Assembly: GCA_964647855.1 (NCBI GenBank)
Contig: CAZYJW010000002.1
Coordinates: 244,399-308,398, forward strand
Direction: 5' to 3'
Length of the DNA stretch: 64,000 bases
Source of the DNA: Candidatus Micrarchaeota archaeon
GTDB taxonomy: Archaea; Micrarchaeota; Micrarchaeia; Anstonellales; Bilamarchaeaceae
This document shows positions 7,541 through 37,173 of the stretch, piece by piece. Within the stretch, counting starts at the first letter, position 1; each line of letters opens with the position of its first letter. The notes below the pieces were generated by a model. That model was not told the origin of the DNA, searched no databases, and was given only the letters and a program-made list of their open reading frames with translations. Made by a program: the position numbers and the translations under genes.

Positions 7541-7602
7541 GAGTGAGCCTTCCGCGAAGGATTATTTAAAAGTTATTAACATAGAGGAATATCCTGCCAC
7601 GC

Positions 7603-7773: not shown

Positions 7774-7810
7774 TTGGCTTTTTCGCGGGCCTTGGCGCGA
7801 CGGGCGCCTT

Positions 7811-9145
7811 TCACGCATTGCCGTTGGATGCACCGGTCAGGCTTTTAAGGTTGATAACCAGTCTGAGCCGAACCTTTACAAGCTCTTCATGGAGGTATTT
7901 TAGCCTCTGGAGAAGCCGCTCCTTATAGGTTGTGATGCTTATCTTCCCCCATTCACAGCGGACCGTGTCGGTGTCTATTCCTATATTCGCCGCATCGAAT
8001 TTGGCCATCTTTTCAAGGAGTTCGTCTCGGCTGGCCTTCCCTTCGAAATAATCCTTTACGCACACGGTCAGGTAGAACTGGCCCGTCAGGCTGCCGAGAA
8101 CGCGGCGGTTCTTTTCAATGATGCCCTTTCGCTTCCTGTCGCCGCAGAGCGAGGCCGCCTTTTCGCCGTAGCCGGCCAGCCTGTCCTTCAAGCCGTCCTG
8201 GCGCAGGAGAGCCTTCAATTCCTCGGGAACGCAGGAAAAGGACCTGTCCGCGCTTACGCCATTGTCATCAATGAGGCGGAACGCCTCTTCCATCCCCGCA
8301 TCATTCCGGATTTCTTGCAGAAAATCGCGCAATGCCTGCCTGCGGCGTTCCTCATTCTCAGCCTGCAGCTCCTTTTTCCGATTTTCCGCCTTCCTGCGTT
8401 CCGCCGCATCAGCCACGGCAGAGACGAACTCGTCGACCGTGCCCCCGGATATCTCCTGCGACAGTCGAACGCATCTCGAGGGGGCGTTTGAGCCGGGTAT
8501 TCGCGCCCATTCGCCTCCGAGCATTTCAACAAATCTTTCAAGCTCTTGCGCCGATTCGAATGAGTTCAGATAGCGCATGAGCGTGCCTATTTTCGAGAAA
8601 TGGACGGGCGCCGAGCGGCAGAGCCCCTCTATATCGGATAGTGCGCCCTCATCCGAGGCTAAGGCCCCGTGCATCAGTTCAGGGCTGAACATTCGGCTCT
8701 CCGGAAACAGAGCCCCGAGCTTGCAGAGCTGCGCTTCCCCGTACCTTTCTGCGAAGGCCGCCAGCTCTTGCGCGAAGAGGGCGGCTTTTCTCTTGGGATA
8801 GTCTTCGAAAAATATCCTGATATAGCCGCTTTCGTCCATGCTCCTGCCAAGCATGAACCCCCGCTCCTCTTCATCCGCCAGGCGGTATGCGCCATCTTCA
8901 TACACTGTCCGCGCGTTCATTTCGTTTGATATGTGGACGCCCAGTTCCGCTCTGCTAAGGCCCTCGATTCTGGCGGTTTCGTGATAGTTCGCCACAATCC
9001 TCGCAAGAATCCGCGCCTTTTTGCCGCATGCCGCATCCGGGCCGGCCGCTTTCAGCCTTGATTCCATTCTCGAAGCTGTCCGCAGGAAGGTTTCCTTCCT
9101 GCATTCCGAAGGAGTATTCGCATTGGCAGATTTCATATGGGTCAC
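7811..9145 (-). CDS. Hypothetical protein (444 aa; central coiled-coil, possible N-terminal HTH)
   Basis: Longest ORF in the interval. The start is either GTG 9145 or ATG 9136. A TATA-like TTATATAA lies on the minus strand at 9174-9181. No family recognised. Confidence 0.6.
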   Translation of the reverse strand: MTHMKSANANTPSECRKETFLRTASRMESRLKAAGPDAACGKKARILARIVANYHETARIEGLSRAELGVHISNEMNARTVYEDGAYRLADEEERGFMLGRSMDESGYIRIFFEDYPKRKAALFAQELAAFAERYGEAQLCKLGALFPESRMFSPELMHGALASDEGALSDIEGLCRSAPVHFSKIGTLMRYLNSFESAQELERFVEMLGGEWARIPGSNAPSRCVRLSQEISGGTVDEFVSAVADAAERRKAENRKKELQAENEERRRQALRDFLQEIRNDAGMEEAFRLIDDNGVSADRSFSCVPEELKALLRQDGLKDRLAGYGEKAASLCGDRKRKGIIEKNRRVLGSLTGQFYLTVCVKDYFEGKASRDELLEKMAKFDAANIGIDTDTVRCEWGKISITTYKERLLQRLKYLHEELVKVRLRLVINLKSLTGASNGNA

Positions 9146-12998: not shown

Positions 12999-13541
12999 TC
13001 AGACAATCTCGGCCATTCCGGCCTTGAGCAGCCATTCGGCCTCAGGCCCGGGCAGAAGCTGCTCCGAACCCTCCTTGAACGGCCCGTACAGCGCGTTGTC
13101 GAGGCCGCGGTACTGGGAGACGTCCTTGAGGAGCTTTATCCTCCTGGAATCGGCCGGGGCGGCGTCCTCGCTCGCCCAGACGTTCTTGACAGTCTCCCTC
13201 GATTTCTTTATAATCGATGACAACTCTTTTAACAGTTCCTTTTCCTCGGCGGTGAGGCCAGCGCCCTCCCGCTCCCCGCGCACCGCCATCAGGACAATCT
13301 TCTCCTCCCGCTTCGCCTGGATTGCCATCACGACCTTCTTGGAGTTCTCGTGCTCCTTGATGGAGAGCAGGGACTTCGACTCCATGGCCTGCGCGGCGGT
13401 CCTCGATATCAGCGCCGAAACCGAAGAGTAGAAGTCATCCGGAAGGCTGACAATGGCGCTTGATTCCATTTCCCTCCGCTGGATGTCCCTGAGTCCTGAA
13501 TAGTCGAGCATGTCGCCCCCCCGCAGGATAGGAATTGTCAT
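12999..13541 (-). CDS. GINS complex subunit (Gins51 / Sld5-Psf1-like)
   Basis: The 180-aa ORF has an N-terminal helical domain (LRDIQRREMES..LPDDFY...). Its C-terminal part, RIKLLKDVSQYRGLDNALYGPFKEGSEQLLPGPEAEWLLKAGMAEI, resembles the archaeal GINS51 B-domain. An alternative start is ATG 13511. Confidence 0.6.
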   Translation of the reverse strand: MTIPILRGGDMLDYSGLRDIQRREMESSAIVSLPDDFYSSVSALISRTAAQAMESKSLLSIKEHENSKKVVMAIQAKREEKIVLMAVRGEREGAGLTAEEKELLKELSSIIKKSRETVKNVWASEDAAPADSRRIKLLKDVSQYRGLDNALYGPFKEGSEQLLPGPEAEWLLKAGMAEIV

Positions 13542-18823: not shown

Positions 18824-21800
18824 TCAGACCTTCTTGACCTGGGCGACGAAGTCCTTGGCCGCGTCGAGCGTGTCGGCCGCTTCCTTGCCGGCCACCACGA
18901 TCTTCGAGCCCTGGACGACCTCCCTGACCACCTTGGTCTCTGCAGTCCAGTCGACTGCGGAGCCCTGGAGCAGGTCGGCCGTCACGGTGTTGACCGCGTC
19001 ACCACCGACGGACACGAGCGTGTTCACGCCGACGGCGTCCGAGTCGAGAACGACCAGGTTGCCGTAGGTGCCCGTGTAGGGCATCGCGACCGTCACCGAC
19101 GGAGCGTTGTTCGGCATTATGACAGCCGATACGCCGCTCATGTCAGCCGTGCACGAGACCGAGCCGCCGGCAGCGCTGCACGCGCCGACATCCTCGGTTA
19201 TCTCGAGCACCTTCACGGTCACGCCGCTCACGGTCGTGGACTCGCCCTCGCCGAGGGTCACGATGGTCTTGCTCGCGTCGGCAGCCGATGTGGATGCCGG
19301 AGCAAGGAGCCACTGCGCCCTGCCGAGCTTGTGGGCCATGTCGAACTCCACGGTGTCGTCGTCGAGGCTCTTGAACTTCGAGCCGCGCTCGGAGATGTAG
19401 CCCTCTTCGACCATTTCTACTCCGCGGTTGACGGGTCCCGACAGGTCGACGCCGGTGCTCGTGAAGTCGTAGAACTCGTCGACACCAGGGCTGGTGTCGT
19501 CCGCGCCCTGCGGCACCGCGTGCCCGTAGAGGACCTCCTCGTCAGCCGAGGTAAGCGGCTGGTCGGTCGAACCGAAGTCCGAGTCGAAGTCGAAGGTCGC
19601 ATCACCTGCGTTCGTCGCGTCGAGGTCGTTCGCACCGAAGACCCAGTAGTTCACGTACTCGCTCGATGAGCCCTCGCCGGCCTTCTCCGCAATCGCGAAG
19701 AAGAAGTCGCCGTCGGAAAGCGCGCCCGCGCCGCCGTATGCGGCCTCGAGCATGTTCCCGATGCGGTCCTCGTTGACATCACCCGCGGTACCGGAAGCCA
19801 CGTCCACACCGCTCTCGATGAGGATTGCTCCACCCTCGGGTGACTCGAAGCCGGTGTCGCCGTCTCCCACGTCATCGTAGGAGATCTCGATGCCAGCCGG
19901 GTTGTCGCCGTTCGAGTATGTCCGAACGCCGTATTTGCCCGAGGTCGCCGAGACGGTCATGAAGACCGAGCCCGAGGCGTACGGAACATCCGCCATGGCG
20001 TCTCCGACAATGCCGTTGTCGTCATCGTCGCAGATGGCGCCAAAGAAGGTGGTGCCTATGTTGTTGTCATAGGTCTGCGGTGCCGCATCGTTGTCGTCAA
20101 CCACGTCGTCGCGGTCGGCGATGTTCAGGGCAACGAAGAACTCGTCTCCAGAGAGCTCCGCGGAGCCATCGTCGGTGACAGAGAACACCGAGCCGGATGC
20201 GCCGGAGGTGACCTCGAGGTACGGTGCGAAGATGAAGCACGCGTCCCTGTCGCCGTCGGTGTCGACATCAGGCCCGTCGTCCTCGTTGATCTTCTTCGTG
20301 GACGAGGTCTTGAGCTCGAACTTCAGGCTCTCCATGTCGTCGGATGTGAGGCTGAGGCCCTTGTAGCTGAGCTTCCAGACCTCCGGGTCCTGGACCAGTG
20401 ACAGGTAGTCGCCCTCTTCGAGCTCCTCCTCGCCGCTGCTCGAGACTTCCTCGACATCCTCTGAGTAAACGACTATCGTCCTCAACGTGTCGGGGTCGTC
20501 CGCGGGCGCAGCGTCTGCGTCCAGGTTCTTCCATCCGAGCGCCACCTTGTAGCCCTCGTTGTTGCCCTCCTCCTCGTTCAGCTCCTCGCCGTCGATGAGC
20601 TCGAGCTCCTTCGCGAAGATGGCCACGTCAGCCCACTTGGCTCCGAAGGTGTAACCAGGCGCAACCTTGTACACGTGGAACCTGTAGGTCTTGCCGCCTA
20701 CGGCCATCTCCTTGGTCTGTCCCGGGCCGACCTTGTCCTTCTTCAGGATGTTGCCGTTGGCGTCGAGCACCGAGATAATCGCGCTCGTCGTGTCGCCGTG
20801 GGCTTCAAGGTCGTCCAGCTGGAACTTCAGGCCGTCGACCGGGAGTGATTCGCCCTGGTTCAGGATGCCCGAAACGGCCTCCTTCGCCAGCTTCACCATG
20901 CCGCAGTTCTCGACCTCGCTCTCGGTGTCGAGGCTGTAGGCCTCGCAGTCGGAAGCGTCCATCTCGCTGACAATCCACTCCTCGCCGAGGAACCAGAGCT
21001 TTAGCCTGTGGGTCTCGGTCGCGTCGTCGATGGTTGTCTCGCCGACGTCATCCTTGCACTCCGCGTAGTCCTGGTCCTCGGAGCGGGTACAGACGGGGAT
21101 ACCCATCTCCTGCCCGCCGGGGCCGTCGAACTTCAGGGAGTAGGCGAGGAAGTCCACCTTGCCGACCACGTCGTTCGGGTCGTCGCTGAAGTGGTTGTCG
21201 CCGTGGATCCATAGGGCCTGCATCTCGACATAGGTGTTGCCCGAATCATCGTCGGTCAACGTCTTGTCCTGGAAGGTCGAGAGCTCCGTCCCGTCAATCC
21301 TGAACAGGAACGTCTGGGACGCGCCGATGTTTCCGCCAAGGCCGGTGCCGTCGGTGAAGGGGTTCGCGTTCTCAGAGGTGTCCGACGTCGTCATCGGGTA
21401 CTCAGAGTTCGTGTTGCCCACATCGTCGCGCTCGCGGTCGAGCAATTCCCTGTTCAGGTAGTCTCCGATCAGGTTCTCGCCCTGCCAGGTGCCTGCGGCA
21501 ATCGAGCCGGGCACGGTTATTTCGAGCTTCGCCTTCTCGTTCGTTATGCTGCATGTTCCTGCAGCTCCGCCGGAGTCGCCCGTGCAGGCAGCGGTGCCCG
21601 AGACCTGAGCCGTAAGCGTCTGGCTCTTGTACATCTCGCTCACCATCTTCCCCGCAATCAAGGCGCCCGCGACACCGTCGCTCGGCTGACTCTTGCCTCC
21701 TATGACGACCTTCGCCACGGGGGCGCCGTTGTCGTCGACCAGCGTCGTCGAGCCGAACATAAGGCCCGCGAACGCCGCAGAGCTGGCAAGAATCGTCGCA

Positions 21801-21841
21801 CCCGCGACAATCGCGCCAATCTTCTTCAGGTTCACTTTCAT
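18824..21841 (-). CDS. S-layer (surface layer) protein
   Basis: 1005 aa. Signal peptide MKVNLKKIGAIVAGATILASSAAFAG. The N-terminal block LVDDNGAPVAKVVIGGKSQPSDGVAGALIAGKM and the C-terminal block KIVVAGKEAADTLDAAKDFVAQV resemble the archaeal S_layer_N and S_layer_C domains. The body is very acidic and Thr/Asp/Gly-rich. It has a long AT-rich upstream region and a strong T-tract terminator. Confidence 0.75.
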   Translation of the reverse strand: MKVNLKKIGAIVAGATILASSAAFAGLMFGSTTLVDDNGAPVAKVVIGGKSQPSDGVAGALIAGKMVSEMYKSQTLTAQVSGTAACTGDSGGAAGTCSITNEKAKLEITVPGSIAAGTWQGENLIGDYLNRELLDRERDDVGNTNSEYPMTTSDTSENANPFTDGTGLGGNIGASQTFLFRIDGTELSTFQDKTLTDDDSGNTYVEMQALWIHGDNHFSDDPNDVVGKVDFLAYSLKFDGPGGQEMGIPVCTRSEDQDYAECKDDVGETTIDDATETHRLKLWFLGEEWIVSEMDASDCEAYSLDTESEVENCGMVKLAKEAVSGILNQGESLPVDGLKFQLDDLEAHGDTTSAIISVLDANGNILKKDKVGPGQTKEMAVGGKTYRFHVYKVAPGYTFGAKWADVAIFAKELELIDGEELNEEEGNNEGYKVALGWKNLDADAAPADDPDTLRTIVVYSEDVEEVSSSGEEELEEGDYLSLVQDPEVWKLSYKGLSLTSDDMESLKFELKTSSTKKINEDDGPDVDTDGDRDACFIFAPYLEVTSGASGSVFSVTDDGSAELSGDEFFVALNIADRDDVVDDNDAAPQTYDNNIGTTFFGAICDDDDNGIVGDAMADVPYASGSVFMTVSATSGKYGVRTYSNGDNPAGIEISYDDVGDGDTGFESPEGGAILIESGVDVASGTAGDVNEDRIGNMLEAAYGGAGALSDGDFFFAIAEKAGEGSSSEYVNYWVFGANDLDATNAGDATFDFDSDFGSTDQPLTSADEEVLYGHAVPQGADDTSPGVDEFYDFTSTGVDLSGPVNRGVEMVEEGYISERGSKFKSLDDDTVEFDMAHKLGRAQWLLAPASTSAADASKTIVTLGEGESTTVSGVTVKVLEITEDVGACSAAGGSVSCTADMSGVSAVIMPNNAPSVTVAMPYTGTYGNLVVLDSDAVGVNTLVSVGGDAVNTVTADLLQGSAVDWTAETKVVREVVQGSKIVVAGKEAADTLDAAKDFVAQVKKV

Positions 21842-22140
21842 TCTTTCACCTCTAGTTTTTTACACCGCCTTCTTCTCTCGACCGGGCCGTCTAAAACAAT
21901 TAACGGCGGTGCGGTTCTTCTCTACGGCCCAAAACGCCGGAGATAGTTTCCCCGGCTCCGATAGGGAATCCCCTATCGAGATTCTGAGAGCATGACTTAC
22001 AGAATATTTATAAAGATTTACCCTTGACATAAAGTCCAGTTTATAAATTCAAGTTTTAATTATGGCAATAAACGTAGTATCAGTTCGTTTCTAATCGAAT
22101 AAGTTGCCTCCTTCGCCGGAACGCATTTGCCCGCTCCTTA

Positions 22141-23004
22141 TTATATATCTATCGATTGGCCGTCTTCCGCGATTTCGGTGTTCGGGAAGACCGCACGCGC
22201 CTCCTCGAGGAGGGCCGAGGTGTCCGAATAGCGCGGGCTGATGTGTGTCAGGGCGAGGCGGTTTACGCCCGCCCGCCTTGCTATTTCCGCCGCGCCCTCG
22301 GCCGTGCTGTGCTGCCTTTCGGCGGCCTCCTCGGATTTGGACTTGTCGAAGGTGGCTTCGTGGATGAGTAGGTCGGCGCCCCTGGCGGCCTCGACGGTCC
22401 GCTCGTCCGGGGAGCAGTCCCCGGCGTATGCGATCTTCCTCCCGGGGCGCTTCCACGTGACGTCCTCGAGAAGGACCTCCTTCCCGTCGGGCGTCTTCAC
22501 CTTCCCATTCTGCTGGATTTCACGGAACATCCTCCCCGAGAGGCCGAGGCCGTGCGCCTTCTCCTCGTGGAACTTGACCTTGTCCTCCTCTCGGAACACG
22601 AACCCGTAGGAGCCGCGGCAGTGCCTCACTCCGAAAGCCTCGATTGAGAAGCCGCGCCCGCGCAGGATTTCGCCGCTCTTAATCTTCTCGACCGAGGCGA
22701 ACGGGTAGTCGCCGACCTCCATCCCGCCCGGGATGAATATCCGTATCTTCCGCGGGGCCGGCGAGGAGAGTTTGAGCGTCTCGAGAAGGCCGAAGAGGCC
22801 GAGGTAGTGGTCGAGGTGCGGGTGCGTGATGAAGACCGAGCCGATGCTGCCGTAGCCGACCTTGTAGCGCATCAGCTGGCGCTGCGTCCCCTCGCCGCAG
22901 TCCCAGAGCATGAGCTCGCCCTCGTGCTTGAGCGCTATTGCGGGCATGCCGCGCGCGACCGTGGGCGCGCTTCCGGACGTGCCGAGGAATGTGACCCTGA
23001 GCAT
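22141..23004 (-). CDS. rnz: Ribonuclease Z (tRNA 3' endonuclease, metallo-beta-lactamase fold)
   Basis: MLRVTFLGTSGSAPT..RGMPAIAL..GELMLWDCGEGTQRQL...ITHPHLDHYLGL (HxHxDH motif) ...ALTHISPRY. The 287-aa size is typical of short-form RNase Z. Confidence 0.9.
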   Translation of the reverse strand: MLRVTFLGTSGSAPTVARGMPAIALKHEGELMLWDCGEGTQRQLMRYKVGYGSIGSVFITHPHLDHYLGLFGLLETLKLSSPAPRKIRIFIPGGMEVGDYPFASVEKIKSGEILRGRGFSIEAFGVRHCRGSYGFVFREEDKVKFHEEKAHGLGLSGRMFREIQQNGKVKTPDGKEVLLEDVTWKRPGRKIAYAGDCSPDERTVEAARGADLLIHEATFDKSKSEEAAERQHSTAEGAAEIARRAGVNRLALTHISPRYSDTSALLEEARAVFPNTEIAEDGQSIDI

Positions 23005-28329: not shown

Positions 28330-29475
28330 TCATTCGAGCGGAGTTATCGGGACCCGCCTCGTGGTGAACGTGGTTCCGAAGCCGTCCGGGCGGGGCGGGC
28401 CCGGGGTTATTTCATAATCCGGGAACATCGCCTGCAATCTCGGGAATTCGGTTTCCTCGTAACCGGCATGGACGACTCCGCCCTCGATGAACAACGAGTC
28501 CCCGTCCCGCCGGAGGAAGCCGCCGCTGTGGACATGGCTCCGGAATTCATCGCTCACGGGGCCAAAGCTCTCGGGCGGGTTATATGGATCGATATTCAGG
28601 TATTCGTCATAATAGGCGACGATGTTTTCCCTGGTCTGGATTAGCAGCTCCGTGGGGACCAGGTTGGACAGGCATACGCCGTCCCCGTGGACATACCTGT
28701 CGATTTCCGGGATGTGCATGATTCCGTGCCCATCCTCCCCGGCGCCAATCGATTCGGAGCGGACATAATCCGCCCGGATGCCTATCGAGCGGAGCATCGT
28801 GACGAGCGTGAATACCGCGAGGTGGCAGCCCACGACGCGCTCCTGGAAAACGTCCCGTATGGAGACCTCCGTGGGGTCGGCCGAACTTTCACCGGCATGG
28901 CCCGCATCATAGACCGAAGGCGAGTAGTCCCCGTGGTAATGGGGAAGGTTCGCCTGCCCCCAGGCGACTATCCTCCGAACGCGGCCTTCGACTGTGGTTT
29001 CGCCCCGCACAAGCTCTTCGGTGAATTCCCTGACCAGTCCGGTCTCCCCTTCCATCACCGAACCCTCATACGTCCAGTCCGAGGCGCATCCGGCCGTCCG
29101 CGGCACGAGGGCGAGCGGCCCGAGGATGCGGGATGCGACGGCCCCCGCTATCCTTTCCGATAGCCGGGGCTCCGCAGTTTCCTGCCGCCTCGCCTCGGCC
29201 GGCCCGGGTGCCCGGGGCACGTTTGCCCCGCGCAAACCCGAAACCATCCGCTCGAGCTCCTGGCGCAAAGGGGCGTCGCGTTCCGCCAAAAGGCGGGCGT
29301 TTAGCGCATTCGCCGCCAGCGCCCTCTCGCGCGAATCCGGCGGGCTCCCGAGCGCGATTTCGTCCAGCCTTCTCGCGGCCCGGATGCGCGCGGGCAGGTC
29401 CGGGCCGTTCAGCTGGATTTCAAGATGCCGGATTTCCTCGCGGGGGGATTGCGCCCGCATCGATGCCTGCGACAT
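28330..29475 (-). CDS. Transglutaminase-like cysteine peptidase-fold protein with N-terminal HEAT-like repeats
   Basis: Start chosen at ATG 29475 (MSQASMRAQSPREEIRHLEIQLNGPDLPARIRAARRLDEI...). The core RVVGCHLAVFTLVTMLRSIGIRADYVRS...GHGIMHI...D fits the Cys-His-Asp transglutaminase-like pattern. The upstream 138 codons of the track ORF run through a structured repeat region and were rejected. Confidence 0.6.
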   Translation of the reverse strand: MSQASMRAQSPREEIRHLEIQLNGPDLPARIRAARRLDEIALGSPPDSRERALAANALNARLLAERDAPLRQELERMVSGLRGANVPRAPGPAEARRQETAEPRLSERIAGAVASRILGPLALVPRTAGCASDWTYEGSVMEGETGLVREFTEELVRGETTVEGRVRRIVAWGQANLPHYHGDYSPSVYDAGHAGESSADPTEVSIRDVFQERVVGCHLAVFTLVTMLRSIGIRADYVRSESIGAGEDGHGIMHIPEIDRYVHGDGVCLSNLVPTELLIQTRENIVAYYDEYLNIDPYNPPESFGPVSDEFRSHVHSGGFLRRDGDSLFIEGGVVHAGYEETEFPRLQAMFPDYEITPGPPRPDGFGTTFTTRRVPITPLE

Positions 29476-29520: not shown

Positions 29521-29810
29521 GGGAACCCGAAACAGGAAACCGAAAAGAGGAATTGGGCAGTTGTGAAATCTCCGACGAGATTTCACTTCCCGCACTTGTT
29601 CGCCGTTGCGAACAAGGCGCACCAAGTTCGCCGAGCGAACTTGATTGTCCCAATTTTCCGTTAGGCAAAACGGAAGACCGGGAACTGGGAACCAAGGGAA
29701 AATTGGGCTGTCGTGAAATCCCTGCGGGGCTTTCACTTCTTCCCAAAATCCCAGCCGGCAAAACGGAAGACCGGAAACTGGGAACCAAGGGGATTTTGGG
29801 CCCGCGCGGG
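29521..29810. repeat. Hairpin-rich block of degenerate direct repeats resembling the element's attachment-site arm (probable integration scars)
   Basis: 45-nt direct repeats lie at 29664-29708 and 29757-29801 (GGCAAAACGGAAGACCGGRAACTGGGAACCAAGG..TTGGGC). AATTGGGC-GT.GTGAAATC modules lie at 29551 and 29701. Perfect 9-bp hairpins lie at 29563-29586, 29595-29616 and 29623-29643. The segment 29530-29558 resembles 36770-36798, next to attR. Confidence 0.7.
29796..29810. repeat. attL core: 15-bp direct repeat TTGGGCCCGCGCGGG (copy of tRNA-Val 3' end)
   Basis: Identical to 36793-36807, which is the discriminator, acceptor and start of the T-stem of tRNA-Val. Confidence 0.7.
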
Positions 29811-30004
29811 TCAGATGTTTCCTGTTTGGTGTTTTGTGTTCTGGGTGCAGCGTCGTGAGTTCTGCGGTTCCCGCATGTCGTTCCGACATGGGGCGCAGAG
29901 AACGAAGTTCTCTGCCGTTCCGTTCCGAGTCCAGCAGGTTTCGGCTGCTGCTTTCCGAACTGTTTTCCGTCAGATCTCATACGGTTCACCTTTATTGGCA
30001 TTAA

Positions 30005-30994
30005 CTAATCTTCGAGTACCAATCCCCAAATCCGTTTCAAAGGTAATTCGGCTTTCAATTCATCATCAAATTTATCGTAATACTTGAAAATCTGTCCGAG
30101 TAAATTCCCGAGGTCCCATAAGCGCATGGAAAAGAATGCATCCTTGGCTTCTGATGTAGCTTGAGAGGTAAATCCACCCGCAGAAACCAATATCCCTTGT
30201 TCAGCTTGGTACTTTGACATGACTCCCCTCAGTTCCCGGACAACCTTCACATCTAAAGAAGAAGATGACGATTTTACCTGCACGCATACTCTGGGTTTTT
30301 CAAATCCTAATGGTCCTGCTGCCGCAAGGATATCGACCCCACCGTCAGGACCAGGAGGAGATAATTTTGTAACGTATCCTTGAGCCTGAAGGATTGCATC
30401 TACCAATCGGGCTAGATTATGCCCCTTAAATTTCGAATTGATATGTTTTACGATTTGATCCTTTGCATTCTCTTCTATATCGACGAGTTCTTCTTCAGTT
30501 ACGGTTTCAGTTCCTTGTGTTGAGATTCCCCCTTCTTGCAGCAGCTTCTTGATACGATTTTCGGCGTCATTTCTTTCAATTTTACCTACGGTTAAAAATG
30601 CCCCCAAGGAGTAGAGAATATCTTGGTCGAAAGCGGAGCGTGGAAGAGTCTTTATCCATTTAACTCGTCGAATATGTTTTATATTATTGGCGAGTTCTTT
30701 GTATTCATATTCTCCCTCAACTTTACCCAAGACAATGGATGATTGCGTCTTGAGTGGAAGCGCCACCAAGTCGCCCACTTTTATCTCATGAATAAATCTC
30801 CAAATCTGGCCTACCTGATTAGCAGCCTTCATTTTCTTTGAATCCGGGTATGTTTTTGAATAGAGTTCAGCAAGTTCTTGTCTAGACTTAATTTTTGATA
30901 AATCGGGCAGCTCCTCCCAACCAATTACAACTACTTTATTCTCTAATGCTCCCGTTTCTCGTTCACCGTAGCTACCAGCTCGAACAAGCCAAAT
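30005..30994 (-). CDS. mrr: Mrr-family (type IV) restriction endonuclease with N-terminal EVE/Mrr_N-like domain; start codon uncertain (first ATG at 30832)
   Basis: The catalytic domain GPDGGVDILAAAG...RVCVQVKSSSS..V.ELRGVM......GILVSAGGFTSQA shows the D...QxK Mrr_cat pattern. In-frame upstream of the first ATG, hand translation gives (I)WLVRAGSYGERETGALENKVVVIGWEELPDLSKIKSRQELAELYSKTYPDSKK, the normal N-terminus of this family. That stretch has no ATG, GTG or TTG; an ATT lies at 30994-30992. Confidence 0.7.
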   Translation of the reverse strand: MWLVRAGSYGERETGALENKVVVIGWEELPDLSKIKSRQELAELYSKTYPDSKKMKAANQVGQIWRFIHEIKVGDLVALPLKTQSSIVLGKVEGEYEYKELANNIKHIRRVKWIKTLPRSAFDQDILYSLGAFLTVGKIERNDAENRIKKLLQEGGISTQGTETVTEEELVDIEENAKDQIVKHINSKFKGHNLARLVDAILQAQGYVTKLSPPGPDGGVDILAAAGPLGFEKPRVCVQVKSSSSSLDVKVVRELRGVMSKYQAEQGILVSAGGFTSQATSEAKDAFFSMRLWDLGNLLGQIFKYYDKFDDELKAELPLKRIWGLVLED

Positions 30995-31155
30995 ACTCAG
31001 AGAATCACCATCCTTTGATTCGTATTATTACTGCATTTCTTTATACCTTTTCGCTTACGCTATCGAGATTGGCATACTATTCTGCGGCACACATCTGACC
31101 AGAAAACCATGCATTGTGGATTTCTAGCCTTCAGTTTATCCTTCGTCCAAGACGG

Positions 31156-31518
31156 TTACGTATCACCACGTTCGTTCATCGTCTTCCTCAGATTGAATAG
31201 CATTGACCGGATTTTCACCAACCGGCCCATGAAATCCAAATGCTCGCGCTGAGGCAGAACTTTGAGTTCCTTCATCATGTCCATCCAGAATTCGCATTCG
31301 TTGGCCTCGCCTATGCAGGTAATTACCTTCTGTTTCATGGCGGCCTTCGATTCGAAAGCGGCCATCTCCGCCAGGTTCGCGCAGATTGATGAGGCAGAAG
31401 CCAGCAATTGCTCCTTCGCCCGATATGAAGTCTGTTTGGTTTCGAAGAAAACGTACAAATCTTTAGATAACCTAAATGCGTCATCGTAGACGACTAGGTT
31501 CTTGAAATTCTGCGTCAT
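31156..31518 (-). CDS. Four-helix-bundle protein (23S rRNA intervening-sequence protein family)
   Basis: MTQNFKNLVVYDDAFRLSKDLYVFF......SASSICANLAE....S.... fits the family pattern. A strong SD GGAGGTG lies 5 nt upstream of ATG 31518. Confidence 0.65.
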   Translation of the reverse strand: MTQNFKNLVVYDDAFRLSKDLYVFFETKQTSYRAKEQLLASASSICANLAEMAAFESKAAMKQKVITCIGEANECEFWMDMMKELKVLPQREHLDFMGRLVKIRSMLFNLRKTMNERGDT

Positions 31519-31984
31519 TGTCCCACCTCCGAATAATACCAATTTCGATAACATTCCCCTTCCCAGAGCCCATTGAACTGACATATCATTTCCATTTCCT
31601 CACCTTTTATTGGCCATGCGGGTTCATTTCCGCACAGACCCCTGCCCGGCTTCCTTAAGTCCGGAATTTCCGGCGAGCTTCACTTCGAAGCCCGGCTCTG
31701 GGAGTTAAGGGCTGAAGAAGTGAAGCGAAGAAATAGCGTTTCGAGTTCTGGGGTTTGGGTCCGAGGGAGCGAGTTCGGTGCGATTTTTATTGCCTTTAGC
31801 GATAGCGACCCGAAGCGATGCCGGAAAGGGCATTATTGGTTTCGGTCGCTAGGCCGAACCGCGAAGTGGCTTTACCATTAAGGCTTTTCCCGGCTGAGCG
31901 AGGGGAAAGGAATAAAATGAGCACGCCGGAAGGCGAGAACGAGCGACCGCGCAAGAAAGGAAGGATTTAAAGTTTACTTTCCTG

Positions 31985-33841
31985 TTGGATAGCATGCGTA
32001 TCTGCCCTAAGTGTGGCCACAAAGCAAGACGTGCAGAGTTTTGTGAAAAATGTGGTGCACATTTAGCACAAATGAAAAAAAAGAGCGAGGGGCCGACTAG
32101 TCCAAAAGCATCTTCAATTTCTCCAGTATTGCTTGCGATTTTTTTAGTTATTATATTAGGTGGCATAGCGCTCGTCATTAGCATTGCAGGGGGATTGGCA
32201 GTGTATGTGGGAGCATTACAATCACCCACGACACTTTCAACGAATATCAAAACAGGAGCAGATGGTTGTGCAGGTACAATCGATTATATTGTCGACCTAA
32301 AGGACGCAAATGCCGAGGGACTGGCTGGTCAAAAAGTCACAATATTTGCAGATGGTGACGAAGTAGAAAAACTGGGAACGGATCAAAATGGCCATCTCGC
32401 AGCCACTAAGGAGATACCGATAGAATGGTGCGGGAAAACAGTTAATTTTACAATTAATTACGGCGGGGATATTTTTCATAAAAATGTTTCCGAATCAACA
32501 ATAGTCACACTAAAAATACCGACAAAGTTGCAACTTTCGGCGCCAAGCCAAGCCGTAAATAACACAGAGACGATAGTCAATTGCACATTAATCAATCTGG
32601 TTGATAATAATCCAATAGCAAACAAAAGCATCGTAGTGCCCAATAGCGTTTCAATTCAGACAAAAACAGATGCGCAAGGAGTTGCTCAGATACGAGTAGT
32701 ATTCAATGAAACAGGGATCAAAAAGATAAAGGCAACTTTCAATGGGGACGATTCATACCTCAGCTCCGAAAGTTCGCTCAACGATGTGCTTGTTGTTCCA
32801 GAAACTTGTAGCGATGGCACGATTGTGGGGGAATGTTCGGATAAAAACCAGGGGCAGTATTGCCTCAAACTTCCAAAAAACGTTTCTACAACACTAGAAG
32901 TTAGTACTGCATTGATTCCGAATTGTGAAGTATGTGCGTGCGCAACTGGCCTCGTATGTTATAGGGATGCATGCATAGCCGAAGAACAAAGAACCACACA
33001 ACTTATCGAAGAACTACAGGATAGTATCGTGTACGTAGAGCACTCTTATGCAACTGGTTCTGGCGTTATTCTCTCACAGAGTGATGGGGAAACCATTATC
33101 TTAACGAATAAGCATGTGGTGGAAGGAGCCAGCAGTATAGGTGATGTTGAGATAACCACCTATGGCCAAAAGACAACTTATGCAAAAAACATACTTGTTG
33201 CGCCAAATGAGATGGACTTGGCTATAATCTACGTTTCAGGGACGTATGGTACGCCTGCTAAGATAAATTACTCTGAGCAGCACTCAAAAGGTCAAGCAGT
33301 TATAGCATTGGGCTCCCCACTGGGGATTCAGGGGAGTGTATCTGATGGAATAATTTCTAATTTTATTTATGATATCCCCTCAGATGTGTATTCTTACGAT
33401 GTAATACAAACTGATGCAGCAATTAATCCAGGTAACAGTGGGGGAGGCCTATTTTTGAAAAGCACGGGTAGCTTGATAGGCATCAACACACTTGTATTAC
33501 CGTCGGAATATGGGCAAGAAGGACTTGGATTCGCTATCGATATTAAGGAATTGCAAGCTCTACCGTCTTATTCAAGTTGGGAAACCTTTACACCAACCCC
33601 GAGGTGTTTCGATGGAACTCCCTATGGTTCTTGTTCTATCTTTTTCATAGGTAAAATGTGCTTGGGTGGATACCTTGAGGATAAATGCGAATTTTGCGGT
33701 TGCCTATCGGGCCAGTACTGCCCATCCAATGGAAAGTGCTTCTCCTGCCCAGCCGGATACACACCTTATGAGGATTATGGTGGAGAGCCGTTCTGCTGTC
33801 CGCCAGGGACAATCGGGTATGTCGGGGGATACTGTTACTAG
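31985..33841 (+). CDS. Membrane-anchored trypsin-like (S1C/HtrA-type) serine protease with N-terminal zinc ribbon and Cys-rich extracellular regions
   Basis: Zn ribbon CPKCGHKARRAEFCEKCG. TM helix ISPVLLAIFLVIILGGIALVISIAG. Ig-like repeats. Protease triad contexts TNKHVV (His), DLAIIYV (Asp) and INPGNSGGGLF (Ser). The C-terminus is Cys-rich. The start is TTG 31985 or ATG 31994. Confidence 0.75.
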   Translation: MDSMRICPKCGHKARRAEFCEKCGAHLAQMKKKSEGPTSPKASSISPVLLAIFLVIILGGIALVISIAGGLAVYVGALQSPTTLSTNIKTGADGCAGTIDYIVDLKDANAEGLAGQKVTIFADGDEVEKLGTDQNGHLAATKEIPIEWCGKTVNFTINYGGDIFHKNVSESTIVTLKIPTKLQLSAPSQAVNNTETIVNCTLINLVDNNPIANKSIVVPNSVSIQTKTDAQGVAQIRVVFNETGIKKIKATFNGDDSYLSSESSLNDVLVVPETCSDGTIVGECSDKNQGQYCLKLPKNVSTTLEVSTALIPNCEVCACATGLVCYRDACIAEEQRTTQLIEELQDSIVYVEHSYATGSGVILSQSDGETIILTNKHVVEGASSIGDVEITTYGQKTTYAKNILVAPNEMDLAIIYVSGTYGTPAKINYSEQHSKGQAVIALGSPLGIQGSVSDGIISNFIYDIPSDVYSYDVIQTDAAINPGNSGGGLFLKSTGSLIGINTLVLPSEYGQEGLGFAIDIKELQALPSYSSWETFTPTPRCFDGTPYGSCSIFFIGKMCLGGYLEDKCEFCGCLSGQYCPSNGKCFSCPAGYTPYEDYGGEPFCCPPGTIGYVGGYCY

Positions 33842-33922
33842 GATTAAGCAGATTGTGCAAAGATAAATGAGTATGAGTAAAGCGAGAGAATGAATGAGTT
33901 CATACTTTTGCACCATAAAAAA

Positions 33923-34738
33923 CTAGATTTTAGTTGAATTGCTCCAACGATGTTCGAAAATAGCTTTTAAGTTCGGCAAGAATCCATGAACAAAATCTTT
34001 TGGGAGAAATATTACGAATGATTCCTTATTGCCTAAGTCCTTGATACCATGGCCGATTACGACAAGTGCATTTTTTGCGATAATGTATCGGTCATGCAAT
34101 TCATAACCATTAGAGTAGCGACGCAGTTCTATATTCTTGAATTCAGATTTGAAGCGTTGTAGATTTTTATTAAATTTTTCTGCATTTCTCTGCTCTTCTC
34201 CACCCAACTCGGAAGATAAAAATCGTATTTTTCTATCATTACCAAACAGAGATAATACATGAAATGTCCCGTTTCCATAATATCGATCAACAATGCATAG
34301 TTCACCCTCTAAGCGTTCAATAATTTTTGGGAATTCTTTATTGAGATCAGACCAAGACTGTTCACCTGAGTAAAAGTGAACGCCCATGGAAGAGGTGAGA
34401 AAACTGTTCGCTTGTAAGAATTTCCTGCCAAGAACCGTAATCTCGTAATATACCTTTCCCGCTTCCTTATGAGCTTTGACCTTTTTACCCGCGCGTGCAA
34501 ATGCCCGGAGGATTGTTTTTTCGTCCAGTGGAATTTCCCTAAGTTGAAATAGAAGGTAACTGATGGCTTTTGCAGTTAGCCTATTGACGACTCCACTGTC
34601 CTTTGTGATCTCTAAAATCCATAATGCCTGCGCTAGCGGTTTCAAATCGGTTGGATTTGGGAATTTGGATAAATCCTTTTTTTTCAATGCCCGGCAGATC
34701 TCTTCCTCGGAGGCGTAACCCATCATATCACCAAACAT
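33923..34738 (-). CDS. Hypothetical protein: N-terminal winged-helix-like region plus C-terminal PLD-fold MIT_C-like domain (HDRY motif)
   Basis: The C-terminal half LCIVDRYYGNGTFHVLSLF..RKIRFLSS.....LQRFKSEF..IELRRYS..ELHDRYIIAKNALVVIGHGIKDLG follows the MIT_C PLD-like pattern as I recall it (DPYI...LT...HDR.I...G.GLD). It overlaps the upstream gene by 11 nt. Confidence 0.5.
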   Translation of the reverse strand: MFGDMMGYASEEEICRALKKKDLSKFPNPTDLKPLAQALWILEITKDSGVVNRLTAKAISYLLFQLREIPLDEKTILRAFARAGKKVKAHKEAGKVYYEITVLGRKFLQANSFLTSSMGVHFYSGEQSWSDLNKEFPKIIERLEGELCIVDRYYGNGTFHVLSLFGNDRKIRFLSSELGGEEQRNAEKFNKNLQRFKSEFKNIELRRYSNGYELHDRYIIAKNALVVIGHGIKDLGNKESFVIFLPKDFVHGFLPNLKAIFEHRWSNSTKI

Positions 34739-35057
34739 ATGCCTTGTATTTCTTTTCTGCCGTTGATTTTGTGGCTTTCCGAAGGAGTTTTCTATTTGCT
34801 AAACGAAGCAACGCAACTGTGACTCGGTCTGATTCACAATGGTACGTTCCTTGGAGTTTTTTATGTACTTCATCAGCGGTTTTTGGGCTTGAGAAAAAGC
34901 CATTATCACGAAGAGCAAGGATGTGGTCGGGGAGTCTGAGATTTCCTTTTGCTGCGTGGTGGGAATTTTTTTTTGCAGGCTTACCTTCAAGTAAGGCCAA
35001 CCTCTCTTCATGATTTTTTAATAACCGCTCAACTTCATCAAACTTAGTTATCGTCAT
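34728..35057 (-). CDS. Hypothetical small protein (coiled-coil plus winged-helix-like C-terminus), middle gene of a 3-gene operon
   Basis: Start chosen at ATG 35057 (MTITKFDEVERLL...). An SD GGGGTGG lies inside the end of the upstream gene, with a 4-nt gap to that gene's stop. Confidence 0.55.
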   Translation of the reverse strand: MTITKFDEVERLLKNHEERLALLEGKPAKKNSHHAAKGNLRLPDHILALRDNGFFSSPKTADEVHKKLQGTYHCESDRVTVALLRLANRKLLRKATKSTAEKKYKAYVW

Positions 35058-35061
35058 ATTG

Positions 35062-35646
35062 TCAACCACCCCTAAGAGTCGAATTCTTCCTAAGCTCTTG
35101 GAGGGCACGAACGCCTGCGTCAGATATCTGAAAGCGCCCTCTACCAGCCCGATCAAACCAGAATTTATATCGAACCATGTCCTGAGCCAACGTCCGATAA
35201 TTCTTTATTAGTGGGAGTTTGCTTGCACCACCCCTCACTAAGGCGCGATATACTTTTTCGAGGTCAATAGTTGAAAATGTCGATTGACCCTTCCGGTCAT
35301 AGAGCTCAGCTATAAGTAGGAGAGCCTCCGGTGATTTAATTTTCTCCGTGTCCTGAATCTCACTTTTAAGAGCCGCCAGATCGCTAGAGGAGATATCAGT
35401 TGCCTCTTCTGGGGTATTGCCTTTGAGCAATCCGGGGGTTTTTCTTTTCGAAGGCGGGAGGACAGGATTGTCAGCCTTTCTCAGCGCACCTGGATTAGAG
35501 AGAAGATGCGTGAGGATTGTCTCGAAGGCCTTAGTTTTTATATCGCCTTCGGGCATTTCACTTATGGCTTCTTCCGCCTTTTTCCTTGCTGCAATAATTT
35601 TTTCAACGTCGTCCATATACTCACCCACATAACCTCCATCTTGCAT
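35062..35646 (-). CDS. Hypothetical protein (helical N-terminus, disordered linker, winged-helix-like C-terminus), first gene of a 3-gene operon
   Basis: 194-aa ORF in the AT-rich element. The C-terminus reads FSTIDLEKVYRALVRGGASKLPLIKNYRTLAQDMVRYKFWFDRAGRGRFQISDAGVRALQEL. Confidence 0.55.
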   Translation of the reverse strand: MQDGGYVGEYMDDVEKIIAARKKAEEAISEMPEGDIKTKAFETILTHLLSNPGALRKADNPVLPPSKRKTPGLLKGNTPEEATDISSSDLAALKSEIQDTEKIKSPEALLLIAELYDRKGQSTFSTIDLEKVYRALVRGGASKLPLIKNYRTLAQDMVRYKFWFDRAGRGRFQISDAGVRALQELRKNSTLRGG

Positions 35647-35780
35647 TATTTAGGATAACAGTTTAAATACATATGTTTCCACGACATAAAATTTCATTTA
35701 ACTCACAAAATGTGAAGAGTAAAATGGTTGGATATAGGAAAAAATTCTGTAGTGTATATTGTCTATGCCGACGATATATA

Positions 35781-36668
35781 TCATGAGCTCTCTTGCATTC
35801 GTTTAATTTTCACTAAAAATCCATCTTCCTGGGCCATGGCAATGCTTCTGTAAAGCTCCTCCTTGCCAGTATGGATATACGTCATCGTCGTTTCCACGCG
35901 GTGGTGGCGTGCAAACTTGCTCGTCAGAACCACGTTGCCGTTGTTTTTCTTTGAAAAATTCGTTATGGCGTAGTGGCGGAGGCTATGGGTGGTGAGGCGG
36001 TGGAGCTGCTTGGGTATGCTGCCATCGGCTAAGCCATAGGTTTCATCCAGCTTCAGCTTCCGAATCGTCTGCCGGAAGACGTTGCGAACGTAGTTCTTGT
36101 CAAGGTAAGGACAGGGGTTTCGGTCGGGGAAGGTTTCGGCCCAGAAAAGATGGCCTTTCGCCTTGGCTATCGCATCCTCGTAGTCGCTGATATACTTCAG
36201 CATCTGCTCAAAGAGTTGAGGGGGGATGGGGAGGCTGTCGGCACGGCTGCCTTTCTGGTTGTCTATCTTGAGGTCTCGGGTTTCGAGGTTTAGGTCCTTC
36301 ACATGGAGCTTGACGGCTTCCCCTATCCTGAGCCCTAAAACAGCCTGGAAAGTGAAAAGCAAGGCCATCCTTGGGTCTTCCACGGCATTCAGGAAGCGGA
36401 TAAGCTCCTGCTCCGTGAAGCCTTTGTTCATCGTCCCGTATTTCGGTATCCGCCTGCGCAGGAAACGCCGCTTTCGGGCTTCTGACAGGATTTCTATGGC
36501 CCGGACGAGCCTTTGTTTGGGGAGGTAGCGTCCAAGCCATTCTAAGGTCTCCTTGGCTTCTGGCCAGAGCTGCTTGGTTTCGTGTCTAGAGGGTTTTGAG
36601 TTCTGATTGCACGGGGCCCAGAGGCTGGTTTTGGGTTCTGTGTCGTGGGTTCTGTTCGCTTTCGGCAA
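35781..36668 (-). CDS. Tyrosine recombinase / integrase (start uncertain; track ORF runs to 36872 through the tRNA)
   Basis: Catalytic-domain signatures LGLRIGEAVKLHVKDL (Arg), HSLRHYAIT (H-x-x-R) and ARHHRVETTMTYIH (His...Tyr). Directly adjacent to tRNA-Val. TTG 36668 is the first plausible start outside the tRNA; the next ATG is far downstream (MNKGF). Confidence 0.8.
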   Translation of the reverse strand: MPKANRTHDTEPKTSLWAPCNQNSKPSRHETKQLWPEAKETLEWLGRYLPKQRLVRAIEILSEARKRRFLRRRIPKYGTMNKGFTEQELIRFLNAVEDPRMALLFTFQAVLGLRIGEAVKLHVKDLNLETRDLKIDNQKGSRADSLPIPPQLFEQMLKYISDYEDAIAKAKGHLFWAETFPDRNPCPYLDKNYVRNVFRQTIRKLKLDETYGLADGSIPKQLHRLTTHSLRHYAITNFSKKNNGNVVLTSKFARHHRVETTMTYIHTGKEELYRSIAMAQEDGFLVKIKRMQESS

Positions 36669-36792
36669 GGCCCGAACTGGCGGGAGAGCGAACAGAGCCG
36701 TTTCTTGGCCCCAATCGGGCAGAAGTTGTGGCAGAATCTCCGACGTAAAAAGGCAAAACTCAGAACTCAAAACAGAAAACCGAAAACAAGAA

Positions 36793-36807
36793 TTGGGCCC
36801 GCGCGGG
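36793..36807. repeat. attR core: TTGGGCCCGCGCGGG within the tRNA-Val 3' end
   Basis: Identical 15-mer to 29796-29810. Confidence 0.7.
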
Positions 36808-36941
36808 ATCGAACCGCGAATCTCCCGCGTGTGAGGCGGACGTCTTAACCAGAATCGAAGCCGGAGGCGCACCTCAGGCCTTTTTCCAGGGTTTTTGGCA
36901 TAAGATAGACCTAAGCCAAAAAGCCTTTCGACTACGGGCCC
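36794..36941 (-). tRNA. tRNA-Val (anticodon CAC) with a roughly 70-nt non-canonical intron in the D-arm
   Basis: The reverse complement reads GGGCCCG-TA-GTC[...insert...]TTCTGGTTAAGAC-G-TCCGC-CTCACAC-GCGGG-AGATT-CGCGG-TTCGATC-CCGCG-CGGGCCC-A. The acceptor, anticodon and T arms fold perfectly. The D-arm halves GTC and GAC are separated by about 70 nt containing the TTTTTGGC/GCCAAAAA and GAGG/CCTC helices. The exact splice points are not resolved. Confidence 0.8.
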
Positions 36942-37018: not shown

Positions 37019-37131
37019 AGCCCCGTCGTCTAGTTCCGCCTTTTAGTAAAAGGCGGCCTAAAACGAGGGACATTGGTCAAGGATAGTGGACTTTGGATCC
37101 ATTGACGGCAGTTCGAATCTGCCCGGGGCTA
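37019..37131 (+). tRNA. tRNA-Gln (anticodon TTG) with a roughly 39-nt non-canonical intron in the D-loop
   Basis: AGCCCCG-TC-GTCT-AGT[TCCGCCTTTTAGTAAAAGGCGGCCTAAAACGAGGGACAT]TGGTCAA-GGAT-A-GTGGA-CTTTGGA-TCCAT-TGAC-GGCAG-TTCGAAT-CTGCC-CGGGGCT-A. The insert contains a 9-bp hairpin (CCGCCTTTT/AAAAGGCGG). Boundaries are approximate. Confidence 0.8.
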
Positions 37132-37173
37132 TTCTTGTTCCCGGTTCCGGGTTTCCGGTTTTGAATTCCTGGT

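Follow-up and report, generated by a model that had tools for sequence, protein, structure and literature searches.

How did a 7-kb stretch of AT-rich DNA come to lie against a tRNA-Val gene in the chromosome of a Candidatus Micrarchaeota archaeon, and what does it carry? The DNA in question is part of a window of 64,000 nt (contig CAZYJW010000002.1, positions 244,399-308,398), and all coordinates are counted within this window unless a related locus, labelled L with a number, is named. Positions 29796-36807 are a 7.0-kb integrated mobile element, inserted at the 3' end of the tRNA-Val gene. Its tyrosine integrase gene seems to have been severed by the element's own insertion, and comparison with related loci places the element in a family of compact relatives that share, besides the integrase (Int), a core made of a four-helix-bundle (4HB) protein, a micro-open reading frame (micro-ORF) and a structured RNA, the remaining genes being exchangeable and defence-like. 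The prolyl-tRNA synthetase (ProRS) gene adjoining the island assigns the window to Candidatus Micrarchaeota, in the DPANN archaea, with 86-91% identity to the nearest public genomes, of which L015 is the closest (91%).

Insertion at the 3' end of tRNA-Val

The ends of the element, its target, and the junctions predicted for its excised state are the following.

29796-29810: attL core, a 15-nt direct repeat reading CCCGCGCGGGCCCAA on the tRNA sense (minus) strand, placed by the exact repeat and by the switch in the L015 alignment described below
36793-36807: attR core, the same 15 nt, making the functional 3' end of tRNA-Val
36941-36794, minus strand: tRNA-Val(CAC), the integration target, with an intron of about 73 nt in the D arm (about 36857-36929)
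GGAAACATCTGA-CCCGCGCGGGCCCAA-TTCTTGTTTTCGG: rebuilt attP junction of the predicted circular form
GGTTCGAT-CCCGCGCGGGCCCAA-AATCCCCTTGG: attB junction of the predicted restored empty site

The repeat, TTGGGCCCGCGCGGG, has two exact copies only in the window, and exact matches to it were found in 0 of 100 dinucleotide shuffles. Its second copy takes in the 3' strands of both the T stem and the acceptor stem and the discriminator A of tRNA-Val(CAC), plus one nucleotide, so that the core is the final 14 nt of the tRNA and one extra base. The original prediction, made from the letters alone, had proposed an AT-rich element of about 7 kb bounded by this repeat, with the second copy being the end of tRNA-Val; both claims are borne out, the minus-strand orientation and the intron being new details. 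Default runs of ARAGORN and Rfam found no tRNA in the window, and they miss tRNA-Val because the insert of about 73 nt interrupts its D arm; when introns are allowed, ARAGORN places the gene at c[36793,36942], and all of its forms spliced in silico are tRNA-Val cac. The new T-rich trailer of the tRNA, at 36752-36792, comes from the element.

The composition of the island departs clearly from that of its surroundings, as a check suggested with that prediction was meant to reveal: its GC content is 0.448 against 0.637 +/- 0.028 in 173 other 7-kb windows (z = -6.9), and its tetranucleotide distance of 0.643 compares with at most 0.227 elsewhere. Could the region nevertheless be an ancestral part of the chromosome that is merely AT-rich, with a 15-nt repeat that arose by coincidence? 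If two mismatches are allowed, 22 of the 100 shuffles reach at least two matches to the 15-mer, which would speak for coincidence; the exact repeat, however, never appears in the shuffles, the compositional deviation is large, and islands built in this way lie at tRNA genes in many genomes. The question is settled by L015, where the 3' end of tRNA-Val is contiguous with a homologue of the outer flank of the window's attL (84% over 136 nt). A three-way alignment has L015 tracking attR on the tRNA side and attL on the other, with the changeover placed exactly at the 15-nt core. The uninterrupted tRNA-Val site that had been proposed as a check in related genomes therefore exists, the island is an insertion, and the ancestral alternative, which this alignment refutes, retains virtually no weight.

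Within the same population, exact-protein look-ups of the flanking genes returned island-bearing contigs only, and the same island in the same context is present in at least 10 SRA-derived assemblies. Searches of JGI metagenome contigs for the exact attL/attB junction and of IMG/VR for the attP junction gave 0 matches, results that are uninformative given that the source samples are SRA/Logan assemblies.

An integrase gene that appears to span the attP core

The original prediction had placed a tyrosine integrase gene directly inside attR. The catalytic body is indeed there, but the gene does not simply lie inside the boundary, as its open reading frame (ORF) appears to continue across the core and to have its beginning at the other end of the element, 7 kb away.

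29811-29993, minus strand: int(N), with the Shine-Dalgarno (SD) motif GGTG within 29981-29993, an ATG at 29980, and 57 codons reading into the attL core
35781-36792, minus strand: int(C), the body of a Xer-like tyrosine recombinase (PF00589, 1.9e-15), with a linker of about 40 codons to the attR core

In an alignment of homologues, the conservation of int(C) sets in at about 36668, starting VRALPKAN..KQLWPEAKE, and its motifs include HSLRH ... TYIH. At the opposite end, the attL ends of six elements align as a conserved block of about 190 nt that opens with GGTG-N5-7-ATG; the int(N) region is thus also a conserved element end (P arm), and it contains CAGAACnCA repeats. Circular junctions were rebuilt as left end, core and right end, first for eight elements and then for seven more. 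In all eight of the first set, the conserved ATG and the integrase share a reading frame. The distance from this ATG to the core is 123 nt in six of them, 122 nt for L098 and 170 nt for the window. The integrase frame is free of stops in each of these junctions (240-309 nt each), where the other two frames hold 28 and 46. Composition-matched shuffles give a chance of 0.003-0.015 per element for such an open frame. Six of the seven further junctions are likewise open and in frame, including some with different cores (TTGACGTGCGGTCTGACA, or GATGGGCCCATGGAGA), which brings the total to 14 of 15. The micro-ORF, the 4HB gene and int(N) all have an SD of one type ahead of them.

A natural counterpart of the rebuilt gene is found in L182, a contig of 332 kb, where the gene P0103 is an in-frame fusion of 366 aa with an int(N)-type N-terminus. 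Downstream by 6.1 kb, behind the 4HB gene, the int(N) sequence appears again (83% identity over 166 nt) and stops shortly after the core, and there is a third remnant upstream; as read from the contig, this is the pattern expected from tandem integrations. The array occupies 5600-15000 of L182 (it is seen also in L183), with the int(N) copies at about 6134, 8004 and 14139, and its older segment holds a PIN/ribbon-helix-helix (RHH) toxin-antitoxin pair and a radical-SAM gene.

No database homologue matches the part encoded at attL, but as all of these proteins come from integrated copies, this does not count against a split gene. The integrase ORF thus appears to span the attP core, so that integration would leave int(N) at attL and int(C) at attR as separate pieces, and the protein is probably a self-splitting integrase of a non-SSV family in DPANN archaea.

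Several observations weigh against this reading and the wider account built on it, and they are best set out together. The L105 junction, one of the 15, is out of frame. No unsplit, single-copy episomal integrase gene was found in the integrase loci searched, and the attP junction had no matches in IMG/VR, where no excised circle was found. In the window, GC by codon position is.56,.60 and.54 in int(N),.57,.48 and.45 in the linker, and.54,.38 and.68 in the Int body; the pattern of the body is not found in int(N) or in the linker, both of which are low in complexity, and third-position variability is only modestly raised (207 vs 163 and 154). The CAGAACnCA direct repeats may constrain int(N) and the linker at the DNA level, for non-coding reasons. 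In some relatives an internal ATG occurs shortly ahead of the conserved Int domain, which makes a truncated, active int(C) integrase possible. Finally, for the element as a whole, the assignment of the cargo as defence-like comes from hidden Markov model (HMM) and fold similarity to candidate families.

The CAGAACnCA repeats flank the core, with three at the attR side (36605-36654) and two at the attL side (29843-29864), all in the minus-strand sense, and may be arm-type binding sites of the integrase that overlap the proposed coding sequence. Similar purine-rich repeats flank the Int and 4HB genes in L107.

Their presence on both arms would suit a classical island of the lambda or pNOB8 type, in which an intact integrase of about 295 aa starts at the TTG at 36668, the attL stretch would be either a P arm that codes for nothing and holds arm-type binding sites or a small gene of its own, and the continuity of the frame has no function. 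NCBI annotates precisely such a 295-aa protein, homologous proteins are conserved only from about 40 codons inside attR onwards, the Xer-like catalytic domain has a canonical HxxR box, and the missing codon-position signal in int(N) and the linker points the same way. Such an island is difficult to reconcile with an integrase frame that has no stop in 14 of 15 junctions, divergent in sequence and variable in length, where the other frames contain dozens, and with a conserved SD-ATG held at a fixed distance from the core. The core, moreover, remains within the ORF even where the target sequence differs, L182 has a natural in-frame fusion, and no internal start codon is conserved across the integrase homologues. 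We consider the classical island unlikely, leaving some weight to it, and prefer the split gene.

Integrases that are split upon integration, termed suicidal or SSV-type, are described from the SSV, pTN3 and pT26-2 families (PF16795), with a single origin and with no mention of DPANN (PMC8371274, PMC7253208); they have been linked mainly to hyperthermophiles and ascribed to one evolutionary event in one clade, PF16795 (PMC8371274). The element described here resembles SSV1/SSV2, pTN3 and pT26-2 in that, on computational evidence, the attP core lies inside the integrase ORF and integration into a tRNA gene splits the gene. As in these elements, tandem junctions can recreate the full gene, and integrated copies are small and integrase-only. 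The integrase itself differs: only PF00589 was matched even at E <= 10, with no match to PF16795, and in place of the SSV-type signature R...KxxR...Y there is an invariant HSLRH (HxxR) box. A profile search of the PDB returned XerA (4a8e and 5hxy, the best solved relatives), IntI4, HP1 and XerD, SSV integrases being absent at E <= 10. The hosts differ as well, being Sulfolobales, Thermococcales, Archaeoglobales and Methanosarcinales for the SSV type and a DPANN archaeon here, and the 4HB/RNA module that is linked to the integrase in this family is not reported for the SSV-type families. From the pNOB8-type (type II) integrases, with their signature R...YxxR...Y, the present one is again set apart by its HxxR box; the pNOB8-type gene stays intact upon integration. 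Here the conserved catalytic body is intact at attR, the SD-ATG and first 57 codons of the long ORF lie 7 kb away at attL, and the start in use may be either. The most economical reading of these comparisons would be a convergent evolution of the self-splitting arrangement.

A conserved module of protein, micro-ORF and leader RNA

On the same strand as the integrase, and towards the attL end, lies a second set of features that recurs throughout the family.

31156-31518, minus strand: 4HB protein of 120 aa, 23S_rRNA_IVP/Avd family (PF05635, 2e-16; TIGR02436, 8e-18)
31515-31595, minus strand: micro-ORF of 26 aa, MEMICQFNGLWEGECYRNWYYSEVGQ, with its own SD and with a stop codon that overlaps the 4HB start (ATGA)
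31639-31745, minus strand: structured RNA, an extended hairpin of about 106 nt upstream of the micro-ORF and 4HB gene (covariance model R1, 78 bits, E = 1.5e-16)
31746-31921, minus strand: 5' part of the leader, conserved in 8 elements, with a TATA-like CTCATTTTATTCC box at 31909-31921 and two small hairpins at 31841-31870

The original prediction had counted the 4HB protein among the cargo. Its identity stands, but its status as cargo does not: a 4HB gene is present in 27 of the 29 loci that have at least 6 kb downstream of Int, where it is 58-87% identical to the window copy, compared with only 50-70% for the integrases. Nonsynonymous divergence (pN) is 0.09-0.30 and synonymous divergence (pS) 0.66-0.98, which indicates purifying selection with saturated synonymous sites. 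Judged by its distribution, 4HB belongs to the conserved core of these elements. It usually sits on the integrase strand near the attL end, a position that in the circle would directly precede attP and int; a Mrr-type nuclease gene intervenes in the window and in L098. The solved structure closest to the protein is 2RLD and not the Bordetella Avd, and its match to the PHROG "Avd protein of DGR" has an E of only 0.0096.

The micro-ORF, of 26-41 codons, has the same ATGA overlap in 8 of 8 elements, and all eight aligned elements have, upstream of 4HB, the TATA-like box, a leader of about 285 nt and the micro-ORF. The box is presumably a promoter. Covariance model R1 detects the hairpin once per locus in 33 loci, each time on the strand of 4HB, and does not detect it in control loci. 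Across the 33 sequences, 96% of cells are paired and double changes occur in 12 of 24 pairs, in an alignment fitted to the covariance model, which favours structure; there are 61 covarying cells against 10.9 +/- 2.7 in shuffles, none of 500 shuffles reaches 61, and slid-register controls give at most 7. Rfam has no match to the hairpin at the gathering threshold, and only chance-level ones (E >= 3) at 31100-32100. The two small hairpins of the 5' part, whose stems were taken from alignments (TTCGG/CCGAA, TTCAGC/GCTGAA and TTTGCTC/GAGCAAA), appear to covary as well. The strand opposite the 4HB gene holds an open frame of 75 aa (31262-31489, plus strand), and long antisense frames are found also in L113, L125 and L165; they are probably a by-product of the strong sequence conservation.

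Third-position GC (GC3) separates the two parts of the element. It is 0.68 for Int and 0.64 for 4HB, with 0.76-0.87 for the host, and 0.35-0.44 for all five cargo genes, so that the change in codon usage noticed from the letters is real. This contrast fits a resident core and recently acquired cargo.

The Avd kinship of the 4HB protein calls to mind the diversity-generating retroelements (DGRs), and several sister elements carry genuine ones, with an RVT_1 reverse transcriptase (RT) beside Int and pairs of template repeat (TR) and variable repeat (VR).

L107: TR/VR at 8274-8371 / 8843-8940, with 17 of 18 mismatches at template adenines
L138: TR/VR at 2368-2455 / 2866-2953, with 11 of 11
L146: TR/VR at 3183-3241 / 2609-2667, with 11 of 11

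The DGR target proteins of these three loci have no Pfam family. As judged from these loci, DGRs of Micrarchaeota ride on integrative elements of this family. The window element might then be a degenerate DGR cassette, in which the 4HB (Avd) gene and the leader RNA are left over and RT, TR and VR have been lost and replaced; L107, L138, L146, L137 and others, with an RT beside Int and TR/VR pairs, and the place of the 4HB protein in PF05635, the Avd family, lend it some credit. In the window the best similarity to an RT has E = 0.98 and the island has no long repeats that could be TR and VR. Most members of the family, too, are without RT and still keep 4HB, micro-ORF and RNA under strong constraint, and therefore a role that is independent of RT, or exerted in trans, is favoured over decay. 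The degenerate cassette is, in our judgement, distinctly improbable.

The module can be compared with two known settings of the same protein family. With the DGRs of DPANN and CPR (PMC5758913) it shares the Avd-family 4HB and, in several sister elements, RT and an adenine-mutagenised TR/VR; the difference is that the window element has no RT, TR or VR and that in the family the Avd-like gene is mostly RT-less and linked to the integrase. With the 23S rRNA intervening-sequence proteins (IVPs; PF05635/TIGR02436) it shares family and size. IVPs of rRNA are encoded beside or within structured RNA. Unlike their genes, the present one belongs to an integrative element, is coupled translationally to a micro-ORF and has its own hairpin RNA upstream. 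A search of the literature for a link between the IVP/4HB family and integrases, or between Micrarchaeota and integrated elements, found nothing specific.

A compact element family, its cargo and its hotspot

The integrase has 503 homologues, nearly all annotated as Micrarchaeota, and at least 163 in JGI metagenomes; no relatives were found in IMG/VR. Seven further elements are bounded by 14-19-nt repeats of the 3' end of the upstream tRNA, and a more flexible repeat search bounds another seven, giving 15 delimited elements, all of 4.4-9.6 kb, with the fetched flanks being at most 10 kb so that larger family members were possibly overlooked. The cargo of these relatives is varied: a MmeI-type restriction-modification (RM) system, a Mrr and an S8 protease in L098, a UvrD helicase in L097, a Shedu SduA_C nuclease in L165, a Schlafen/AlbA_2 ATPase and an ankyrin protein in L125, a radical-SAM protein and a helix-turn-helix (HTH) regulator in L119, and a CBS protein and an FkbM methyltransferase in L113.

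A second suggestion of the original prediction was that the element may be the remnant of a larger provirus or plasmid, and its observation that capsid, replication and conjugation genes are absent was correct: in the window element, neither Pfam nor PHROGs gave a match to capsid, portal, terminase or other virion families, or to replication or conjugation families. A decayed remnant that has lost such genes would look like this, and it would suit the degenerate att-like relics beside attL, which belong to the host flank and lie outside the element.

29523-29795, minus strand: host flank outside attL, with three degenerate units of GCCCAAT and a T-rich trailer (repeat families D1-D3)

Each unit consists of the partial core GCCCAAT and a T-rich trailer ending GTTTTGCC, two of them have a GTGAAA..TTTCAC hairpin, and one is 86% identical to the right end of the element itself; they may be scars of earlier integrations. 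Units of this type occur also in L018 and at the empty site of L015, hence the relics are older than this insertion and do not speak of its decay. The repeats of the element are exact and every ORF is intact, its integrase family has no relatives in IMG/VR, and the 15 independently delimited elements have in common the core of Int, RNA, micro-ORF and 4HB. The uniformly small size and the shared core thus disfavour a remnant, which we hold to be very unlikely; on these comparisons, the element is one of a compact family and in all likelihood not what is left of something larger.

The following course of events would account for these observations. In its circular form, the element would have one co-directional module composed of a promoter, the structured leader RNA of about 285 nt, the micro-ORF, 4HB, the Mrr-type nuclease (in this element) and an integrase gene of 398 codons that has the 15-bp attP core in its 5' part. 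The Xer-like tyrosine integrase would recombine this core with the identical 3' end of tRNA-Val(CAC), restoring the tRNA, adding the new T-rich trailer, and cutting its own gene into the 57 codons of int(N) at attL and the catalytic body, int(C), at attR. Once split, the gene should leave the element fixed at its site, except where a complete integrase comes from elsewhere in trans or a tandem junction rebuilds one, and the exchangeable cargo of low GC would sit between the two ends of the core. The whole, that is, the insertion together with the split integrase, the core module and the exchangeable cargo, is the explanation that we find best and consider probable. The insertion, its target, the family, the unbroken reading frame, the conserved RNA structure and the homologies are observed in it, whereas expression, recombination activity, the locking and the functions of the cargo and of the 4HB/RNA module are inferred.

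A further step is put forward tentatively, as a possibility that we would not ourselves bet on: the elements may form a new minimal class in archaea, in which self-splitting evolved independently of SSV, pTN3 and pT26-2 and an RNA-protein module is active in the element's own life cycle. The module could in that case control excision and its directionality, prime replication, or recruit a host or DGR RT in trans, and would not be a DGR leftover.

The cargo of the window element comprises five genes.

30005-30832, minus strand: Mrr-type (type IV-like) restriction nuclease (Mrr_cat, 8.2e-27), with an N-terminal DUF8426 taken from the Pfam listing
31994-33841, plus strand: membrane-anchored protease with Zn-ribbon, Ig-like and trypsin-like parts (Zn_ribbon_3, 2.4e-6; Big_1/Big_3_5; Trypsin_2, 1e-21)
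33923-34738, minus strand: o271, third gene of a cassette, with a winged helix and a phospholipase-D-like fold (PADLOC PDC-S05, 2.6e-10)
34728-35057, minus strand: o109, second cassette gene, a small protein homologous to the 113-aa partner in L180 (E = 2e-9)
35062-35628, minus strand: o188, first cassette gene, weakly similar to the 190-aa partner in L180 (E = 1e-5 over 37 aa)

The Mrr-type nuclease and the membrane-anchored Zn-ribbon/trypsin protease had both been recognised from the letters, and the domain matches agree. The Mrr-like protein matches the PADLOC candidate PDC-S02 over nearly its full length (8.1e-113), with the D...QxK motif kept, and L098 has a copy at the same position that is 71% identical. 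The protease matches degP_htrA at 3e-39, under the curated cutoff, with no PDZ match, and its sequence shows a Zn ribbon at the N-terminus, a single hydrophobic segment, H/D/S motifs and Cys-rich segments; secreted proteases recur at the tRNA-Val hotspot in relatives.

The other three genes had been described as a three-gene orphan operon. The three ORFs are indeed without a Pfam family, but they are not orphans: the cassette recurs in L180 and L181 as genes of 190, 113 and 273 aa with the same overlap. Here o188 agrees with its L180 partner in size and position, and o109 agrees in gene order and in how it overlaps the third gene; from its sequence alone, o109 may be a winged helix. The model of o271 (AlphaFold, pLDDT 90) has TrmBL2 as its best whole-chain Foldseek match (4e-9), and its C-terminal domain resembles MITD1, Nuc, NucT and Zucchini. 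Among its 141 homologues, H215, D216, R217, Y218 and K233 are invariant or nearly so; the protein may be a nuclease or only a DNA binder. Homologues of o271 are present also in CPR bacteria and in Nanoarchaeota bins. In L180 (3549-5268) and L181 the cassette stands among two N6_N4 methyltransferases, a PvuII-like nuclease, a UvrD-PDDEXK protein and GmrSD. Sequence comparison points to a candidate defence system that is widely exchanged. The operon was considered also as the backbone of the element, and was ruled out, being missing from all related elements. With the PADLOC matches in the window (PDC-S02 and PDC-S05) and with Shedu, Schlafen/AlbA_2 and MmeI-type RM in relatives, the early description of a small integrative island with a defence flavour is upheld, and the cargo is best termed defence-like.

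Tyrosine recombinases, repeats of a tRNA 3' end, foreign composition and variable cargo that includes defence genes, without replication or structural genes, are features shared with islands integrated at tRNA genes such as PYG1 of Pyrococcus yayanosii (PMC5126054). In PYG1-type islands the integrase gene is intact after integration, whereas here it appears to be split, and a second core of an Avd-family protein, a micro-ORF and a structured RNA is undescribed for them. The cryptic integrated elements of thaumarchaea are likewise of the classical tRNA-integrated type, with an integrase that is kept intact.

Compared among these genomes, the stretch downstream of tRNA-Val is a hotspot of variability. 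It is empty in L015; in L016 it has 1.2 kb before the next shared gene; in L018 it has a secreted protein of 770 aa (caspase-like from its sequence motifs) and a 471-aa gene, and no integrase; and in L031 it has an integrase homologue. Adjoining attL, the window has a GC-rich, host-like gene of 376 aa (28330-29460, minus strand) with a weak Transglut_core match, which is missing from L015, where the p208 homologue follows tRNA-Val within 350 nt.

Interrupted tRNA genes are met repeatedly in this setting. A tRNA-Gln(UUG) gene with an insert in its D region (37019-37131, plus strand), divergent from tRNA-Val, was missed by default ARAGORN and by Rfam, and 157 of its splice variants in silico are tRNA-Gln ttg; its T-rich trailer (37131-37167) resembles the trailers beside the att sites. 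The tRNA-Val of L015 has an extra AT-rich insert of about 52 nt (13340-13391) near the anticodon arm, which the window gene is without, so that the intron content of tRNA-Val differs among close relatives. At 7603-7773 (plus strand), ARAGORN with introns predicts an interrupted tRNA-Ser tga with a 99-nt insert, within the sole other stretch of lowered GC (0.55, 7000-8500); a sharper dip, to 0.496, lies at 21750-22249.

For the biology of these archaea, the family marks a hotspot in DPANN at which defence genes and surface proteases are exchanged, and the carriage of DGRs on its members suggests a route by which DGRs may spread horizontally. If the proposed reading of the integrase is true, self-splitting would have arisen at least two times, and it would be a general way to lock an element into a tRNA gene. 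The family, finally, connects site-specific integration with a protein of the Avd type, a micro-ORF and a structured RNA not described before, and it offers a testable handle on the function of the widespread 23S-rRNA-IVP proteins.

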